Under the pieces are notes generated by a model. That model was not told the origin of the DNA. It saw nothing but the letters and a program-made list of their open reading frames with translations, and searched no databases. Of a DNA stretch of 64,000 nucleotides, positions 1 through 44,331 are shown in pieces. A program made the translations under genes and the position numbers. The DNA is from a virus. The stretch lies in IMG/VR virus record IMGVR_UViG_3300047160_010630, positions 44,001 to 108,000 of that record; one strand, 5' to 3'. Position 1 is the first letter of the stretch, and every line of letters starts with the position of its first letter.

Positions 1-210
1 ACCGGCCGTTTCTGTGCCGAGTGCGGCACCTCTCTCAAGGAGCCGGTGAGCGCGACCGGCACGGACAATGCTCCGGCCGACGACGCCGCTCCCGACCTTG
101 AGTCGATGAGCATCAACGAGCTTCGAGAACTTGCCAAGAGTATGGGTGTGAAGACCGCCCGCTCCAAGGACGATCAGATCACCGCTATCCGGGATTCTCT
201 CGGCAAGTAG
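1..210 (+). CDS. Partial (3' end) protein with a zinc ribbon and a Rho-N/HeH-like C-terminal helix pair; head-region accessory protein
   Basis: Frame 1 reads TGRFCAECGTSL...DLESMSINELRELAKSMGVKTARSKDDQITAIRDSLGK*, with TAG at 208-210. Confidence 0.7.
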   Translation, partial: TGRFCAECGTSLKEPVSATGTDNAPADDAAPDLESMSINELRELAKSMGVKTARSKDDQITAIRDSLGK

Positions 211-235
211 CCGAGGTCCCTGACGGGAGGTCGGC

Positions 236-388
236 ATGGCACGAGGACGACACACTTGCACGTTGTGTTGTCGACGAAGTCGTCCTCCCGTCAATCATTG
301 CGCAGACTGCGGGCAACCGTTCTGCGACCGGCACGGAACCTGGTCGGAAGACCGGTGGGTCTGTTTGAGATGTACACGTCGAAAGTGA
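236..388 (+). CDS. Small Cys/His-rich zinc-finger protein (50 aa; not in the ORF track)
   Basis: GGGAGG RBS; MARGRHTCTLCCRRSRPPVNHCADCGQPFCDRHG...WVCLRCTRRK*. Confidence 0.65.
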   Translation: MARGRHTCTLCCRRSRPPVNHCADCGQPFCDRHGTWSEDRWVCLRCTRRK

Positions 389-401
389 TGCACATAAAAA
401 C

Positions 402-421
402 TGTGCTATCATAACCTTATG
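402..421 (+). promoter_or_regulatory. Extended -10 promoter giving a leaderless LAGLIDADG mRNA
   Basis: TGTGC-TATCAT-aacctt-ATG; no RBS. Confidence 0.5.
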
Positions 422-1192
422 GTTGATCGTGCGTGCTCTTTTCCTGAGTGCAGCAGGCCGCACAAGGGTCGGGGTTACTGTCAGAGCCATCTGAAGATGG
501 TGCGCAACGGGGTCCCTCTGCGGCCTATAAGGGATCAAGTCGTCAGAAATAGCTATACCTACGATCACGAATTCTTCTCTTCTGTAAACACAGAAGAGAA
601 GGCTTACTGGCTGGGGTTCATTACCGCTGACGGATGTATTTCGGATACCGGTGATAGCAGGTTTCTCAGCATTAGGCTTCAAGACAGGGACCATGACCAT
701 CTCGTCAAATTTTGTCGGTCTCTGAAATCTAACCGCCCGGTCCTTCGGTCTCCGGGCGTGTCCTATATGTCTGTGAGCTCTCGCCAAATAATTGATGATC
801 TCATCTCCCTGGGGGTCACTCCGAGAAAGAGCCTTACGGCCGCTCCGTGGTCATCTGCTTCTCCGGAGTTGGCACGGCACTATATCCGGGGATTGTTCGA
901 CGGGGACGGGTTCCTTCACAGGGAGAAGCGGGGCGGCTGGGCAGCAGGATTCGGATCGGGCAGACGGCTATTGGTAGAATTCTTCGCCGCGTACGGGATT
1001 ATCGCAACTGGGTCTACTGCAAAAATTCGAACAGCTTTCACCTCGGCGGGCAACGAATTCTTCGACTGGCGCGTGAACGGTGTCAAGGTAACCGGCAATC
1101 TGATCTCCTGGTTGTATAAGGACACGTCGATGTATTTGGATCGAAAAAAGTCCTTGGCAGACGAACTTATTGGTTCCCAGGAGCCCGATTAG
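419..1192 (+). CDS. Free-standing double-motif LAGLIDADG homing endonuclease with an N-terminal Zn-binding module
   Basis: EKAYWLGFITADG and HYIRGLFDGDG motifs; lower GC than the flanks; N-terminal CSFPEC...GYCQSH. Confidence 0.9.
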   Translation: MVDRACSFPECSRPHKGRGYCQSHLKMVRNGVPLRPIRDQVVRNSYTYDHEFFSSVNTEEKAYWLGFITADGCISDTGDSRFLSIRLQDRDHDHLVKFCRSLKSNRPVLRSPGVSYMSVSSRQIIDDLISLGVTPRKSLTAAPWSSASPELARHYIRGLFDGDGFLHREKRGGWAAGFGSGRRLLVEFFAAYGIIATGSTAKIRTAFTSAGNEFFDWRVNGVKVTGNLISWLYKDTSMYLDRKKSLADELIGSQEPD

Positions 1193-1219
1193 TACCACCT
1201 TTAGGGGGTGATTCATACA

Positions 1220-2173
1220 ATGCCCTTCGGTAGCGCGTACATTTCGCCGTCCATGCTCACAACCGCCCCTACCGGGTTCCCGTGGTCCATAATTCCTTTC
1301 CCAAAAGCGACCAGCGCCCAGCAGCTGGCGGAGCAGACCAACATTTGTTGGAGAGCCACCTCTACTATCGACGGCTATTGTTTATAGGGCAACCAGGTCC
1401 TGCGCTCCACCATCAACAACGAGAACATTTCCGGCCCGGGGAACTACCGCGTCAATATCCAGAACGGCACGGGCAACGTCCGCATGATCCTGCGCCGCTG
1501 GCCGGTGATGCAGATCGTCGCCGTCCAGGTGGCCAACAACGCGGTGTTCCCCCGGCAGTGGCGCAATGTGCCGACCGGGCTGTTCGACGTCGAGCACCCG
1601 GTCCTCGGTGTGTACACGAACACCGCGCCGACGTCCAGTGCCGACGGCGGCCAGTCGATTCTGATCGCTCCCGGCTACGCGGACTGGAGCAATGGGCGTG
1701 ACGGCTTCCGGTTCCTGGTCTCCTACCTGAACGGCTGGCCGCACACCGGCCTGGTGACGGCTTCCACGGCCGGGACGACGACGCTGTCCGTGGACGACGT
1801 CACCGGCTGGGCCGGGGCCTTCGGGACCATCTACGACGGCGCGCAGACGGAGACGTTCGAGGCCGTCAGCGTGACGGCGACGGCGCCGCTGAGCCTGCCG
1901 AACAACGTGGGGACGGTGCAGACGGGCCCGGGGACCGTCACCTTGAGTTCCCCGCTCCTGTACGCGCACCCGGTCGGCACGATCGTCACCTCCCTGCCGG
2001 GCAGCGTCATCTGGGCGACCATTCTGGCCGCCACTGCCCAGGCGCTGGAATCGGGTGCCACCAGTGTCAGTATCCAGAACATTCCTGGGTCGCTGACCAC
2101 GGGTGGGCACGGTATCGCGGATATCAAGACGGAGTACGAACTGCTGCTCGATCCGTATCGCCGCGTGATATGA
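1220..2173 (+). CDS. Probable head-to-tail adaptor / head completion protein, interrupted by in-frame TTA-TAG at 1382-1387
   Basis: RBS GGGGGTGA and ATG 1220 are in frame with ORF 1484-2173; reads ...WRATSTIDGYC-L-*-G-NQVLRST...; C-terminus LLDPYRRVI is typical of adaptors; sits before the neck genes. Confidence 0.75.
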
Positions 2174-2181
2174 TATGTTAC

Positions 2182-2220
2182 TTGCGTACAGCTCAGGATT
2201 CGTGTACTGTAAGAAACATG
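2182..2220 (+). promoter_or_regulatory. SigA/HrdB-like promoter giving a leaderless HNH mRNA
   Basis: TTGCGT-N17-TACTGT-N7-ATG. Confidence 0.6.
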
Positions 2221-2982
2221 AGTGAACGATTCTGCTCTGTCGCAGACTGCCCCAACCCGAAGCTCAACAACACTCCTGTGGGCCCTCTGTGCTCCAAGCA
2301 CTACCAGCGATACCGGCGCCGGGGGTCCGTAGATTCGGTCGCCAAGCCGCACGCCTACACAAAGAAGATCACGGGAGCCCCCTGCACCGTGGGAGAGTGC
2401 ACGAATCCCGTCGTTGTTCGGGGAATGTGTGGCGCCCACTATCAGCGCAACGTCAAGCATGGTAATCCCAGTACGCTTCTGCTGGACCGTAGCCGCACCC
2501 CCGAAGAACGGTTCTGGTCGTTCGTCGACAAGAATGGCCCTGAAGCGTTCCACTCGCAGACCGGAAAGCCCATCGGAAAGTGTTGGAACTGGTCCGGAGG
2601 GGTCTCCGATGGATATGGGATGTTGTGGCTCAACAAGAAAAACATCCACGCGCACAGATTCTCTTACCGGTTGTATCGGGGAGCTACTCCTGACGGCCTG
2701 GAGCTGGACCACCTGTGCAGGAACCGGTCCTGTTCGAACCCGGCGCACCTTGAGCCAGTCACCCACAAGGAGAATGTGCGTCGGGGGGAATCCCCAAGCG
2801 CCGTGGCGCGCCGTACTAAGCGGTGCAAGATCGGGCACGAGTACGAGCCTTCGTCAGGTCCTGGCCCCCGGGGCTGTCAGACGTGCAGGTACTGGCACAC
2901 TGAGGCGCACAACGCCAAGATCCGCAACCGCCCCTTCGAGCAGCTCGCGCTGTTCCCGGTCAGTTGGGTGAGAACCGAATAG
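2218..2982 (+). CDS. HNH homing endonuclease with two N-terminal Zn modules
   Basis: CWNWSG...AHRFSY...LELDHLCRNRSCSNPAHLEPVTHKENVRRG. Confidence 0.9.
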   Translation: MSERFCSVADCPNPKLNNTPVGPLCSKHYQRYRRRGSVDSVAKPHAYTKKITGAPCTVGECTNPVVVRGMCGAHYQRNVKHGNPSTLLLDRSRTPEERFWSFVDKNGPEAFHSQTGKPIGKCWNWSGGVSDGYGMLWLNKKNIHAHRFSYRLYRGATPDGLELDHLCRNRSCSNPAHLEPVTHKENVRRGESPSAVARRTKRCKIGHEYEPSSGPGPRGCQTCRYWHTEAHNAKIRNRPFEQLALFPVSWVRTE

Positions 2983-2990
2983 AAAAATTA

Positions 2991-3020
2991 GAAACCCGGT
3001 CCACTCAGGGCCGGGTTTCT
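2991..3020 (+). terminator. Hairpin / intrinsic terminator
   Basis: AGAAACCCGG-TCC...GGG-CCGGGTTTCT inverted repeat. Confidence 0.6.
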
Positions 3021-3043
3021 TCATGCACCGAGGGGGTCCACCC

Positions 3044-3211
3044 GTGGCCACGTACAAACCTCCCCGCCACCTCAGGGGCGGTATACACGCCCGTACGCTC
3101 ACGGCGCGCCAGCAGCACCGCCGCTCCGGGGCGAAGAAGACCCTCACCCGGCGGATCAACGCGAAGCTGTTCCGGGGACGCACGGTCAACGCGCCCCGGC
3201 ACCGGTGGTAA
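3044..3211 (+). CDS. Small, very basic protein
   Basis: GAGGGG RBS and GTG start; Arg/Lys-rich 55 aa. Confidence 0.55.
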   Translation: MATYKPPRHLRGGIHARTLTARQQHRRSGAKKTLTRRINAKLFRGRTVNAPRHRW

Positions 3212-3221
3212 CAGAGAGTAG

Positions 3222-3722
3222 GTGAGCCTGTTGCCGCTGAATTCTGTGCAGCAGTACGTAGCCAATCAGATCAACGGGATCCAGGTCCCGACCATTCCGC
3301 AGCCGATCGAGGCGTTCATCACGCCACCTGCCATGGAGGCCCCCAACGGCCCCAAGGCGTACATCTGGGGCGCCCGCAACCGGGGCCGACGGCAGACGAT
3401 GCCGCGCGGTATCGCCCCGGCCGCCGGATTCAAGCGGCTCGACTGGACCGTGGACATCTACCTGATCTACGAGACCCTGGCGGACGATCCGATGATCGAC
3501 CAGGACTTCCCGCTCATCATCGACGCCGTCCTCACCAAGCTGTGGACGACGACGATGCCGGTGTTCATCACCGACCCGGTCACGGAGCAGGTGTCCCAGA
3601 TCCAGTCGGTCGGCGAGGAGTGGAACCTGGAGTACCCGCCGGAGCGCACCCCCTCTACTTTGCGTACGGTCTGGTACTCGTCACGGATCGCCATGGACAT
3701 TCTGGAGATTGTGCAGGCATGA
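3222..3722 (+). CDS. Tail completion / tail terminator-like protein
   Basis: Position in the neck module, size and GC3-rich codons. Confidence 0.55.
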   Translation: MSLLPLNSVQQYVANQINGIQVPTIPQPIEAFITPPAMEAPNGPKAYIWGARNRGRRQTMPRGIAPAAGFKRLDWTVDIYLIYETLADDPMIDQDFPLIIDAVLTKLWTTTMPVFITDPVTEQVSQIQSVGEEWNLEYPPERTPSTLRTVWYSSRIAMDILEIVQA

Positions 3723-4165
3723 GCGCTTCACTGGAATTCGACGGCTCGGACCTCGGGGTCTTCAAGAGGATCAGCTTCGCCCGCGCGGTGTCCCGGTGGA
3801 TCGAAGAGGTGTCCCCGGAGATCGAGGAGTCCATCAAGAACGAGGCCCCGAAGCGGACCGGCGCACTCAAGGACTCCATCACCCACCGGAAGAGCTTCGG
3901 CTTCTCCGGCGTGGCGGTGGAGTACGGCAGCCGCCTCCCCTACGCCAGTTATGTGGAGGAGGGGACTCCGCCGCATATCATCCGTGCGCGGAACGTCAAG
4001 AATCTTCGGTTCCAGGGGCGCAGCGGGGACATCGTCTACGCGCCCTACGTGAATCACCCGGGAACCCGTCCCAATCCGTTCTCGCAGCGGGCCGTGGAGC
4101 GGATCCTGCCGGAGCTTCAGTCCCGCTTCGCAGAAGATGTCGAGAGCGAATTCCGAAAGGCGTGA
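3719..4165 (+). CDS. HK97 gp10-like neck/tail component
   Basis: APKRTGALKDSI...YASYVEEGTPPH...VNHPGTRPNPF motif; ATGA overlap with the upstream gene. Confidence 0.8.
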   Translation: MSASLEFDGSDLGVFKRISFARAVSRWIEEVSPEIEESIKNEAPKRTGALKDSITHRKSFGFSGVAVEYGSRLPYASYVEEGTPPHIIRARNVKNLRFQGRSGDIVYAPYVNHPGTRPNPFSQRAVERILPELQSRFAEDVESEFRKA

Positions 4166-4168
4166 TGT

Positions 4169-4435
4169 ATGCGGCTGCGGTACACGGGGTCCCACCCTGT
4201 CACCCTGATGATCCAGGGCATGGAAGTCGATTCCGGCGGCGAGGTGGACGTCCCGGACGAGCTGGCGGAAACATTCCTGCGGCGGGGGGACTTCGTCCCT
4301 GTCCCGGGAGCGGACCTGGCCCTCGCCGGAGAACGGATGCCGGAGGTCCGCCACCAGGACATGGCGCCGGTTGCGGACATGTCGCACATGATGCTCGGCG
4401 GCCAGGAGCCTGTCGCTGAAATCGAAGCTGTCTAA
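4169..4435 (+). CDS. Small hypothetical protein preceding the tail tube gene
   Basis: MRLRYTG...GEVDVPDELAETFL; fills the gap in the operon. Confidence 0.65.
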   Translation: MRLRYTGSHPVTLMIQGMEVDSGGEVDVPDELAETFLRRGDFVPVPGADLALAGERMPEVRHQDMAPVADMSHMMLGGQEPVAEIEAV

Positions 4436-4443
4436 GGAGCGGT

Positions 4444-5880
4444 ATGGCCTTCCCCACGATTACCGAGCGCTACGGGTCGCTTTCCGCTACCGGCCTGGCG
4501 AAGGAAGCGACTTTCGGTGTGCCGGTCGCGGCCACCACCTTCCTGCCGATGACCGGCAATACGATGGAGATGGACCCCGGGTGGTTCTCTCCGCACGTGA
4601 TGCAGGCGGCTCGCGACCTCCAGATCTACAACCTGTACGGCGAGTACAAGTTCCACGGCGCGCTTTCCGGGCCGCTGTTCCCGTCGAACGCCATCGCCCT
4701 GCTGGTGGCCTCCATCGGGCAGGACAACGCGGTCGGCACCGGTATCTTCGGCACGCCGGTCACGCCGACGTCGACCACGTCCAGCGTCTCCACCGTGGCC
4801 GGTGCCACGACGATCACGGTGACGTCGCCCACGGGTTTCGCCACCAACCAGGAAATCCTGATCGACACCGGCCAGCTCCTGGAGGTCCGCAAGATCTCCG
4901 GTGTCGCCGGGTCGGTCATCACCGTGGCCGATGCCCTGTTCTTCGCGCATCCGAGTGGTGCCACCGTCTCCACGGCGACCACGACCACGCTGAGCGCCCC
5001 GTCGATCGTCGGTGCGACGACGGTCACGGTCACGTCGGCCACCGGCATCGTGCAGAACTCGTTCGTCCAGATCGACGTCAACAGTGTCACCGGTACGACG
5101 ACGTCCGAGGTGCGCCGGGTCACCAACGTGGCGACCAACACACTGACGCTGGACACGGCGCTGGTCTACGCCCACGCGAGCGGCGCCCAGGTCGTCCTGG
5201 TGACCACTCCGTACACGCACACCATCACCCAGCAGAACAGCCTGCCGTCGCTGACGGTGGAGAAGAACCTCGGTTCCTTCCAGAGCCTTCAGTTCGCCGG
5301 GTGCAAGGTCAACAAGTTCGACGTGAAGGCACCGACCGGGAACAACCCGGTGGACATCACGGCGGACATGATGGGCCAGTCGGTGCTGTCGCTGACCACG
5401 CCGACGGCCGTGACGGTGACCAGCGAGTCTCCGTTCGTGTTCGCGGAGGCCGTGCTCACCGCTTTCGGCAACACCCGATTCGACGCGCGCAACATCACGA
5501 TGTCGATCGAGAACGGTCTGAAGGAGACCTACACCTATTCCGGGAACCACGGGCCGAGCTTCATCACGCCGGTCACCGTTCACGGTATGGGGTCGTTCGA
5601 CGTGGTGTGGTCCAGCCTGACGGATGCTACGTACGGTGACTTCACCAAGATGGTGAACGGAACGCTGGGCTCGCTGATCTTCTCGGTCATCCACCCGGCG
5701 AGCGCCGGGACGGTGACGTTCTTCCACCCGCAGATCGTTCTGAATAAGTTCGTGAACGACGTGAAGATGGAAGATGTAATTTTGTCTACGATGAACTACG
5801 AGGCTACGCGTCCCGTATCCGGCAACAACCAATTCACGGTCCAGGCCTACGTCTCGAACCAGACCTACCTGTCATATTAA
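4444..5880 (+). CDS. Major tail (tube) protein with two inserted beta-rich modules
   Basis: TGLAKEATFGVP...YTHTIT...LPSLTVEK...FAGCKVNKF tube motifs; upstream of the chaperone and tape measure genes. Confidence 0.8.
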   Translation: MAFPTITERYGSLSATGLAKEATFGVPVAATTFLPMTGNTMEMDPGWFSPHVMQAARDLQIYNLYGEYKFHGALSGPLFPSNAIALLVASIGQDNAVGTGIFGTPVTPTSTTSSVSTVAGATTITVTSPTGFATNQEILIDTGQLLEVRKISGVAGSVITVADALFFAHPSGATVSTATTTTLSAPSIVGATTVTVTSATGIVQNSFVQIDVNSVTGTTTSEVRRVTNVATNTLTLDTALVYAHASGAQVVLVTTPYTHTITQQNSLPSLTVEKNLGSFQSLQFAGCKVNKFDVKAPTGNNPVDITADMMGQSVLSLTTPTAVTVTSESPFVFAEAVLTAFGNTRFDARNITMSIENGLKETYTYSGNHGPSFITPVTVHGMGSFDVVWSSLTDATYGDFTKMVNGTLGSLIFSVIHPASAGTVTFFHPQIVLNKFVNDVKMEDVILSTMNYEATRPVSGNNQFTVQAYVSNQTYLSY

Positions 5881-5901
5881 TCACACCAGAAAGAGGCAGC
5901 G

Positions 5902-6315
5902 ATGGGATTCCTCTCGGCCTTCGGCGACGTTAAGCGCATCACCCTCGACAAGGAGCGCGGCTACTGGGTCGACCTCAAGGAGCACGTCAGCCAGGGCGAT
6001 CGGGAGACCGCCCAGCGGTCCCTGGAGTCGGTGGTGGTGGTCGACGGGAAGACCAACATCTCCCCGGACGTCACCACGTGGCGCGAGCAGATGGTCCTGG
6101 CCACCATCGCCGGGTGGAACCTGGACGACGACAACGGCATCTGGCCCATCACCCTGGACAGTGTCAAGCGGCTGCCGGGAACGGTCTTCGACATGCTGTG
6201 GGTGGAGGTCGAGAAGCTGGGCGAGATCCGTAAGGGTACCGCCCAGCAGGAATTTCGTGATGGAACTGTCGGCGGCGATCAGGATGGGGACGCCGGGTCC
6301 TCCGGTGCTCGGTAG
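5902..6315 (+). CDS. Tail assembly chaperone (G-like)
   Basis: Between the tube and tape measure genes; IAGWNLDDDNG..PITLDSVKRLP. Confidence 0.8.
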   Translation: MGFLSAFGDVKRITLDKERGYWVDLKEHVSQGDRETAQRSLESVVVVDGKTNISPDVTTWREQMVLATIAGWNLDDDNGIWPITLDSVKRLPGTVFDMLWVEVEKLGEIRKGTAQQEFRDGTVGGDQDGDAGSSGAR

Positions 6316-17604: not shown

Positions 17605-17644
17605 TTCCTTGTTCCTTTCTGCGCTGGGTAGAATCTCCACCCTG

Positions 17645-17727
17645 TGTGCTCGGAGGGAGTCGAACCCTCACGTCTCTTGGACGCCGGTACTTGAAGCCGG
17701 TGCGTCTGCCTGTTTCGCCACGAGCAC
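17645..17727 (-). tRNA. tRNA-Leu(CAA)
   Basis: Acceptor GTGCTCG/CGAGCAC, loop TT-CAA-GT, long variable arm, GGTTCGACTCC; no CCA. Confidence 0.88.
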
Positions 17728-43864: not shown

Positions 43865-44331
43865 AGCCACCCTCCATGGACGCCGAGGCACGCTTCCGCG
43901 CCCGCTTGGCGGAACTCGGCGCCACCCTGCTCGACACCCACTGGCGCGGCACCCGCTACAGCTACCGCATCCGCTGCAAGAACGGCCACGAGTCCACCCC
44001 GACCGCCACCACCCTCGTCTACCACGAGAACGCGGGCGTGTGCCGCCAGTGCGCGGCCCTGAACAACCCGCACAACGTCGTCCGCACCGCCCGGTCCCGC
44101 CAGGCGTTCCTGGACCGGCTGGCGGCCGAGGGCGTGGTGCTGCTGGAGGAGAAGTGGCTCGGGTCCGACGCGGTGCACCGCATCCGCTGCGCGCAGGGGC
44201 ACGAGACCACCATCCGGCCGCAGGCCCTCACCCGGTTCCACTACAGCCGCAACAGGTCCAAGGCCTGGCAGCGCAGCCGCGTCTGCGTGCCGTGCAAGAT
44301 CGAGGAAGAGAAGGAGAAGAAGGATGGCTGA
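43861..44331 (+). CDS. Tandem treble-clef zinc-ribbon protein
   Basis: IRCKNGHE..CRQC and IRCAQGHE..CVPC repeats. Confidence 0.7.
   Translation: MKPPSMDAEARFRARLAELGATLLDTHWRGTRYSYRIRCKNGHESTPTATTLVYHENAGVCRQCAALNNPHNVVRTARSRQAFLDRLAAEGVVLLEEKWLGSDAVHRIRCAQGHETTIRPQALTRFHYSRNRSKAWQRSRVCVPCKIEEEKEKKDG

Follow-up and report, generated by a model that had tools for sequence, protein, structure and literature searches.

A TTA-led nine-nucleotide gap in a putative head-tail adaptor gene beside a phage homing endonuclease gene

Results

A conserved gene interrupted by nine nucleotides

The 64,000-nucleotide (nt) stretch of viral DNA analyzed here, referred to as the window (positions 44,001 to 108,000 of IMG/VR record IMGVR_UViG_3300047160_010630), carries near its start a gene for a putative head-tail adaptor, whose coding sequence is interrupted by nine nucleotides that begin with the rare leucine codon TTA. 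The gene lies on the forward strand between two predicted homing endonuclease genes, described below. Its open reading frame (ORF) starts with an ATG at 1220, preceded by GGGGGTGA, and is closed by a TGA at 2171-2173. From position 1370 the codons read GAC GGC TAT TGT TTA TAG GGC AAC CAG GTC, with TTA at 1382-1384 and an in-frame amber stop at 1385-1387; the frame is the same on both sides of the insert and stays open as far as the terminal TGA. The gene can accordingly be divided into a 5' segment of codons 1-54 (1220-1381), ending in TGT (Cys54, 1379-1381), the last conserved codon ahead of the gap and our proposed take-off codon (see Discussion); the 9-nt gap TTA TAG GGC (1382-1390), comprising the rare leucine codon, the stop and a proposed near-cognate landing triplet; and a 3' segment of codons 55-314 plus the stop (1391-2173), in frame with the first. 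The boundaries of the gap could also be drawn at 1381-1389 or 1380-1388. Translated with an X at TAG (P0001), the product has 317 residues, and with the gap skipped it has 314.

Homologues of this protein are numerous, with 618 found in a large protein collection, nearly all of them 302-317 residues long and encoded on soil metagenome contigs of ~100 kilobases (kb). An earlier, sequence-only reading of the window had described the insert as an in-frame TTA-TAG element of nine nucleotides and had suggested aligning homologous adaptors as a check. The sequence is as claimed. When the protein is aligned with 19 homologues (57-82% identity), a single gap of three columns appears, at L-X-G, and the surrounding motif DGY[CVLM]-NQ is contiguous in all 19. 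The 5' segment of the protein is itself conserved, at ~80% identity to homologues. Neither an insert nor a stop occurs at the window's gap site in any of the 80 loci of our first viral-contig scan, and across three viral-contig scans, a metagenome scan and a genome scan we collected 127 distinct intact alleles in which the D-G-Y-C-N-Q region is uninterrupted. Since the flanks are contiguous in the homologues, the nine nucleotides represent a true insert of exactly three codons.

At the nucleotide level, megablast of positions 1-4500 against phage records gave no match, and tblastn of the adaptor against the same kind of record returned only a Thermoanaerobacterium phage, at 31% identity. An Rfam search of positions 1-6000 identified neither an intron nor any other RNA family, leaving a collapsed group I intron unsupported. 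Separately, a metagenome contig of the same family, Ga0210408_10055518 (L106:1-10), opens with AC CAG GTG, exactly at the Asn-Gln codons of the window's insert site; its end may be an assembly break at a haplotype boundary located there.

Structural similarity to head-tail adaptors

Searches of Pfam and PHROGs with the adaptor protein gave no match, and its name is based on a predicted fold and on gene order. The AlphaFold model of a close homologue (P0004; 39 sequences, mean predicted local distance difference test score, pLDDT, 81.8) consists of a helical core with inserted beta domains. An exhaustive VIA-align search with the whole model matched the neck protein of phage 812 (8q01_b, Z 9.5 over 195 residues), a gene transfer agent protein (GTA, 6tba_2A, Z 9.3), the Mycofy1 head-to-tail interface (9lw9_D, Z 8.9), the DT57C neck (Z 8.7) and HK97 gp6 (3jvo, Z 8.0), all values in the middling range by the tool's own scale; the Mu neck and YqbG were also among the matches. 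Foldseek against the PDB gave nothing clear, only TM-scores of ~0.2 to EF-Tu-like beta domains. Downstream of the gene lie a tail-tube-like gene and a tape measure gene, an order that fits an adaptor placed between head and tail genes. Together, the fold match and the gene order make an HK97 gp6 / SPP1 gp15-like head-tail adaptor a reasonable name for the predicted product of 1220-2173, and we regard the gene as a conserved virion gene that is probably essential.

In the P0004 model, the insertion point falls at the C-terminal end of a confidently predicted helix (residues 33-54, pLDDT ~91), at the start of a four-residue linker. The residues that follow directly are among the most constrained in the alignment: Asn55 is nearly invariant, and Gln56 and Arg59 are invariant.

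One of the inserted beta domains (TTLxVDDVTG...LxxPLxYAHxxG; window 1730-1990) weakly resembles repeats in the 478-residue tail-tube-like protein (4444-5880). This similarity reaches E = 0.03 in BLASTP and is accompanied by extra tblastn high-scoring segment pairs in two related loci (L002, 7050-7451; L006, 6504-6866). The best structural match of adaptor residues 171-255 is a phage tail tube domain, with a Z of 10.0.

Interrupted alleles in relatives

By inspecting LAGLIDADG-adjacent loci, running two further scans and checking for internal stops, we found nine distinct interrupted adaptor alleles, namely that of the window and eight in relatives (L numbers denote loci). Written as take-off codon, bracketed gap and resume codon, the window allele is TGT[TTATAGGGC]AAC, and the others are ATC[TTAGGTC]CCA (L028), AGC[CTAGC]TGG (L122), ACT[TTAAGCC]GGG (L335), ACT[TTATGTGAACC]GGC (L319-321), ACA[TTAGACG]GGC (L324), ATT[TTACCCGGTC]TCC (L358), GGT[TTATGGT]ATT (L241) and ACA[TTAGGGGCCTGAGCT]GGC (L286). 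The first codon of the gap is TTA in 8 of the 9 alleles and CTA in the remaining one (L122). The eight sister gaps measure 5-15 nt and lie in an invariant APTG-x-SW-x-IP motif, after residues 18-25. Seven of the nine alleles are frame-breaking; that of L286 is in frame with a stop, like the window's. The gap is the sole lesion in each interrupted allele, the rest of which is open and conserved, and no other kind of interruption was found in the remaining 127 distinct alleles.

The nine gaps also resemble one another at their 3' ends. Four of them end in a triplet cognate to the tRNA of the take-off codon. In the other five, the final triplet consists of G, the same second base as the take-off codon and a pyrimidine: TGT/GGC in the window (1388-1390), ATC/GTC in L028 (4001-4003), ACT/GCC in L335 (1487-1489), ATT/GTC in L358 (2501-2503) and ACA/GCT in L286 (212-214). 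A U36-G wobble at codon position 1 is possible in four of these non-cognate gaps, and the window has an A36-G mismatch there. This pattern may represent a landing rule or, alternatively, a trace of how the inserts originated.

Endonuclease genes and a recoded tract beside the insert

Immediately upstream of the adaptor gene, on the same strand, lies a free-standing ORF of 257 codons (419-1192), which ends 27 nt before the adaptor ATG and 190 nt upstream of the insert. Its product matches PF14528 (E = 2.3e-6, above the cut-off) and phrog_4645, annotated 'endonuclease' (E = 8.6e-42), and has two motifs, LGFITADG and RGLFDGDG, both conserved in the alignment. The ORF has a GC content of 0.53, or 0.60 at third codon positions (GC3), and its family includes >540 relatives in viral contigs, in varied contexts. 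From the two acidic motifs, the profile match and the patchy occurrence at one genomic site, we assign it as a LAGLIDADG homing endonuclease. The LAGLIDADG proteins also carry an N-terminal Cys/His module (C-x2-C...H-x3-GYC-x2-H), present in one copy in the window (419-530) and in three copies in L044 (2942-3350) and L122 (528-900); the module, which weakly matches PHROGs of HNH endonucleases, probably serves as an accessory for DNA binding.

A LAGLIDADG gene stands next to the adaptor gene in just 5 of the 136 distinct alleles (window, L044, L028, L122 and L335), and its distribution is markedly skewed, with 4 such neighbors among the 9 interrupted alleles vs 1 among the 127 intact alleles (Fisher p = 4.5e-5). 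Interruption in L028, L122 and L335 is near codon 20. Given the interrupted alleles that lack the gene and the one intact allele that has it, the link is statistical and not absolute. The spacers upstream of the adaptor gene in L320, L324 and L358 are enlarged, and that of L324 is accompanied by an HNH gene 900 nt upstream.

Composition sets the intervening DNA apart. GC3 is 0.68 in the 50 adaptor codons before the insert vs 0.96 in the next 50 and 0.90 in the rest of the gene, and 16 of the 54 codons of the 5' segment end in A or T (17 of 55 counting the TTA of the gap). The same comparison in 88 relatives gave a mean difference of 0.004 and a largest drop of 0.16; among 50-codon windows in long genes of the same genome, only 0.8% have a GC3 that low. 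Because this stretch is unlike both its relatives and the rest of the genome, we describe it as a compositionally foreign or recoded tract, extending from the endonuclease gene as far as the insert and no further. The sequence-only reading was correct that the insert is real; it overlooked the link to the neighboring LAGLIDADG gene and the tract that ends at the insert.

Several side observations concern the surroundings of the adaptor gene in this and related genomes. The 3' end of the gene is flanked by a second predicted homing endonuclease gene on the same strand, of the HNH type (2170-2982; Pfam HNH_3, E = 1.9e-11; phrog_826, E = 3.9e-39). HNH homologues also lie directly downstream of the adaptor gene in L070, L063 and L118, and the final ~50 adaptor codons beside the HNH gene (2015-2173) have a GC3 of 0.6-0.8. 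The adaptor gene would seem to have been recoded at this end too, again in association with an endonuclease. Further low-GC3 stretches occur ahead of the window, in the structural-gene region (33.5-34.6, ~34.6-35.9, 37.6-39.6 and 42.0-42.8 kb of the genome), and the genome seems heavily colonized by mobile endonuclease genes. In L028, the LAGLIDADG stop codon overlaps the adaptor start (TGATG, 3926-3930), and a single message is probably translated into both the endonuclease and the interrupted adaptor. Several relatives with intact adaptors (L047, 3533-4924; L038; L265; L272) have upstream spacers of 860-1140 nt, vs a median of 189 nt, with no recognized endonuclease; in L047 an open frame reaches 152 codons upstream of the adaptor start. 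These spacers may be decayed insertions. When 80 loci carrying other members of the LAGLIDADG family were screened for interruption of the gene downstream, all that emerged were ordinary pairs of neighboring genes.

Decoding environment of the gap

In the 92 confident ORFs of the genome, TTA accounts for 2 of 24,387 codons, and CTA for 15. The LAGLIDADG ORF, at 53% GC, has eight TTA triplets out of frame and none in frame. Across 142 distinct adaptor-gene sequences, TTA occurs in frame 7 times in 43,037 codons, and two of these seven lead a gap. The window encodes tRNAs for Leu(CAA), Gly, Tyr, His and Met, to which the full 108-kb contig adds one for Ala and two for Thr, making eight by ARAGORN. 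The tRNA-Leu(CAA) (17644-17727, reverse strand) reads UUG and not UUA, and neither a tRNA-Leu(UAA) nor a suppressor tRNA was found in the 108-kb contig. Both the rarity of TTA and the lack of a UUA-reading or suppressor tRNA had been put forward for the window by the sequence-only reading, and both are borne out, the latter across the whole contig. TAG is an ordinary stop, terminating 25 of the 92 confident ORFs, and on this basis we rejected a genome-wide reassignment of TAG.

A scan of the 108 kb for frame switches led by TTA or CTA returned eight candidates (three TTA, five CTA), of which the window site is the only short-gap TTA case; the remaining seven are presumably ordinary gene ends or junctions. 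A short CTAT/ATAG stem around the stop, previously singled out, is indeed present. It does not stand out as a signal, since the local fold is no better than that of shuffled sequences (z = -0.1).

Discussion

A proposed short hop over an endonuclease-associated gap

We lean modestly toward reading the insert as an endonuclease-associated coding gap, which ribosomes would traverse in a short hop made at a hungry UUA codon. The insert would have arrived with, or been selected because of, the LAGLIDADG gene immediately upstream, whose product would target conserved sequence within the 5' portion of the adaptor gene in phages without the endonuclease gene; in the carrier itself, the recoded 5' segment and the micro-insert would together spoil that target. 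A plain insertion would harm a highly conserved protein segment, and therefore only inserts that a ribosome can skip would survive, spoiling the target within conserved coding DNA while leaving the protein unchanged. We infer this protection step from the association between gene and gap, from the recoded tract and by analogy with the mobA element of phage T4 (see below). Taken together, the LAGLIDADG link and the recoded tract point to an insert that exists for protection of the endonuclease target site and not for regulation.

At the gap, UGU (Cys54) would occupy the P site and UUA the A site. Decoding would stall, the peptidyl-tRNA would let go of the message, and the ribosome would slide 9 nt until the tRNA re-pairs on GGC, with two G:C pairs of three, and translation resumes at AAC. 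The outcome would be the normal 314-residue protein, containing ...DGYC-NQVLR...; ribosomes that decode UUA would terminate immediately at UAG. We infer the hop from the common build of the nine gaps and from the precedent of phage phiHau3, and it would presumably be efficient. The seven frame-breaking alleles would be lethal without recoding. Their gaps cannot be rescued by stop-codon readthrough and lack a good slippery site at which a one-base shift could occur, which is why we prefer a hop for the in-frame gaps as well. Given eight further inserts led by TTA or CTA, a ribosomal hop is the most economical reading of the window insert.

A number of observations weigh against this reading. 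The window gap is a singleton, the same gap having been found in no other viral contig, and the closest homologue (P0002, 81% identity) does not have it; the source is an uncultured IMG/VR metagenomic record of 108 kb, estimated to be 88% complete. The window gap stands alone at codon 54, the other eight lying at codons 18-25, and because it is in frame, readthrough of UAG could offer another way across. The landing that the sequence-only reading had proposed, from UGU to GGC, matches at two of three positions, is not cognate to tRNA-Cys and is the poorest of the 11 gaps compared (the nine adaptor alleles and two of phiHau3). RNA folds around three of the gaps are not significant (z 0 to -0.3), and we found no Shine-Dalgarno-like element or upstream motif common to the gaps. 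As for the endonuclease, L044 combines a LAGLIDADG gene with an intact adaptor, 5 of the 9 interrupted alleles lack a LAGLIDADG neighbor, and tblastn revealed no endonuclease remnants upstream of L320, L324 and L358.

The best of the alternatives, which we nevertheless consider unlikely, is that the insert is a misrepair scar, left for example by end-joining after an endonuclease cut, that has inactivated the adaptor gene, so that the contig represents a defective genome. A singleton from an uncultured metagenomic contig, with an in-frame stop and no cognate landing codon, would fit such an allele; an association with endonuclease genes is likewise expected for cleavage scars, and the 1-3 nt repeats at the gap edges would suit end-joining as well as they suit landing codons. 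Random scars, however, would not be expected to open with TTA or CTA in 9 of 9 cases, when TTA makes up 0.08 per 1000 codons. The gene is also under strong selection, with no other type of lesion in 127 other distinct alleles and only one lesion per interrupted allele, the remainder being conserved, and a genome without an essential virion protein is unlikely to be abundant enough to assemble into contigs reaching 135 kb. Nor did a search for templated (inverted-copy) insertion favor a repair scar: it gave a single inverted 6-mer near L028, within chance, and we discarded a templated origin.

Readthrough, in which UUA is decoded as leucine and UAG by a near-cognate or suppressor tRNA to give a 317-residue adaptor with L-x-G after Cys54, could apply only to the window and L286, where the gap is in frame with a stop, and three extra residues might be tolerated at the end of a helix and the start of a linker. 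We judge it improbable all the same: the 108 kb encode no suppressor tRNA, TAG serves as an ordinary stop, no length variation exists at the site in 127 alleles and the neighboring residues are invariant. Readthrough also leaves the seven frame-breaking sister gaps, and the TTA start of the in-frame ones, unexplained, and a programmed form of it is further disfavored in that no relative has a stop at the window's gap site.

An assembly or sequencing artefact, which would mean that the nine nucleotides are not in the phage DNA, is conceivable for a single metagenomic contig and in our estimate very improbable, as a 9-nt non-repetitive insert is not what sequencing or graph errors typically produce, inserts of this class recur in 8 independent contigs from other samples and the insert coincides with a compositional boundary. 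Least credible is a two-piece adaptor made of a 55-residue N-terminal peptide and a separately initiated C-terminal protein, for which a 229-codon ORF from ATG 1484 exists: a restart at that point would cost 31 conserved residues, among them invariant positions (Q, R, T, E, G, P and R), the 3' segment has no ATG, GTG or TTG in frame before 1484, neither a start codon nor a ribosome-binding site lies between 1388 and 1484, and a search for short N-terminal fragment proteins of the adaptor family found none on record.

The hop at UUA was suggested by the sequence-only reading in a different sense, as an inverted developmental switch in which scarcity of the bldA tRNA would allow full-length adaptor to be made. 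Its starting points hold: the phiHau3 precedent is real (PMC10732093), and the insert does lie in a conserved, probably essential virion gene and is led by a codon that the phage nearly avoids. The switch itself is merely the model already published for phiHau3, so that its description as inverted does not apply. The contig contains no integrase or recombinase match, and nothing in our data speaks for a lysis/lysogeny or developmental decision at the adaptor gap. Hints as to the host are one relative in a Streptomyces assembly, one in a Catenulispora metagenome-assembled genome and the strong avoidance of in-frame TTA.

Comparison with known bypassing systems

To our knowledge, documented natural examples of translational bypassing are few, namely T4 gene 60 with its relatives, the terminases of the phiHau3 type and a single yeast mitochondrion. 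The gap of T4 gene 60 lies at codon 46.

The large terminase gene of Streptomyces phage phiHau3 has two 10-nt UUA-led inserts (Antonov et al. 2023, PMC10732093), and single UUA-led inserts occur in the terminases of two Streptomyces prophages, StrepC.1 and one of S. catenulae (7 nt) (Smith et al. 2013, as cited in PMC10732093). A full-length phiHau3 product was obtained in Streptomyces, and a junction peptide was detected by mass spectrometry in Escherichia coli with UUA replaced by UAA (PMC10732093). As we read the DNA, the phiHau3 gaps are GGC[TTACTCCGGT]AAG and TCT[TTAACGGTCC]ACG, and in both the last triplet is synonymous with the codon preceding the gap (GGC/GGU and UCU/UCC). The window shares with phiHau3 a short insert absent from homologues, with contiguous flanks, placed where an essential late gene of an actinophage is highly conserved; the insert likewise begins with a very rare UUA, has a 0-frame stop soon after and ends in a triplet resembling the codon before it. 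It differs in that a homing endonuclease gene stands beside the gap, for which none is reported in phiHau3 (PMC10732093), and in that the gene encodes an adaptor and not a terminase, in an unrelated lineage, with an in-frame gap of 9 nt in which the stop follows UUA directly. The window landing is, moreover, only near-cognate (UGU/GGC), unlike the synonymous pairs of phiHau3, and unlike phiHau3 the window's contig has no integrase, so that no role in lysis or lysogeny is apparent.

The logic of the locus is closer to that of T4. There, the 50-nt gap of gene 60 is part of the mobile mobA element and opens with a stop or hungry codon; it protects its carrier from MobA, and a region of divergent homology lies beside it (Manning and Atkins 2022, bioRxiv 10.1101/2022.08.31.505936). 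That the insert blocks self-cleavage by MobA is attributed in the same preprint to earlier work. In the window, too, a homing endonuclease gene lies immediately upstream, the gap falls ~50 codons into the downstream segment (codon 54), a divergent recoded stretch separates the endonuclease gene from the gap, which begins with a stop or hungry codon, and the arrangement is sporadic among relatives. Unlike MobA, which is an HNH enzyme, the window's enzyme is of the LAGLIDADG type and has no sequence homology to it, and the gap is 9 nt long vs 50. Features of T4 missing in the window are the matched GGA codons, a significant take-off hairpin (local fold z = -0.1) and a known nascent-peptide signal.

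Two further systems offer partial parallels. Low-level bypassing at hungry codons in E. coli, described for reporters as unprogrammed and inefficient (Gallant and Lindsley, as cited in PMC10732093 and bioRxiv 10.1101/2022.08.31.505936), resembles the proposed event in that a slow A-site codon leads to release of the peptidyl-tRNA and re-pairing at a distance of a few to many nucleotides downstream; unlike it, the event in the window would have to supply an essential virion protein. The translational bypassing elements (byps) of Magnusiomyces capitatus mitochondria are many short untranslated inserts of 27-55 nt in conserved genes and are thought to be mobile (Lang et al. 2014, as cited in PMC10732093). 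Unlike the window gap, they are mitochondrial, lack an endonuclease partner and do not begin with UUA. The window gap thus resembles phiHau3 in its form and a T4 mobA cassette in its apparent logic; the adaptor gene, the LAGLIDADG partner and the in-frame UUA-UAG version are new.

Implications

With the window and its eight sister alleles, the same kind of gap is found in a different essential gene and in an unrelated phage lineage, and two ideas so far treated apart are joined: short hops triggered by UUA, and gaps by which a genome is protected against the homing endonuclease it encodes. If our interpretation is correct, gene callers would systematically mis-annotate such genes as split or broken, the nine natural gap sequences would be ready-made variants for working out the rules of landing, and homing endonucleases would be a general evolutionary source of recoding sites.

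More tentatively, and with somewhat less than even confidence, we propose a broader version, in which the homing endonucleases of soil actinophages routinely leave or select UUA-led gaps of 5-15 nt in their conserved target genes. Such gaps would be crossed efficiently by a dedicated short hop that tolerates G at codon position 1 of the landing triplet (G, the same second base and a pyrimidine), so that essential virion genes, the adaptor gene among them, would be constitutively decoded by bypassing. If this version holds, hopping would be a common, endonuclease-driven mode of gene decoding in high-GC hosts and not a two-case curiosity.

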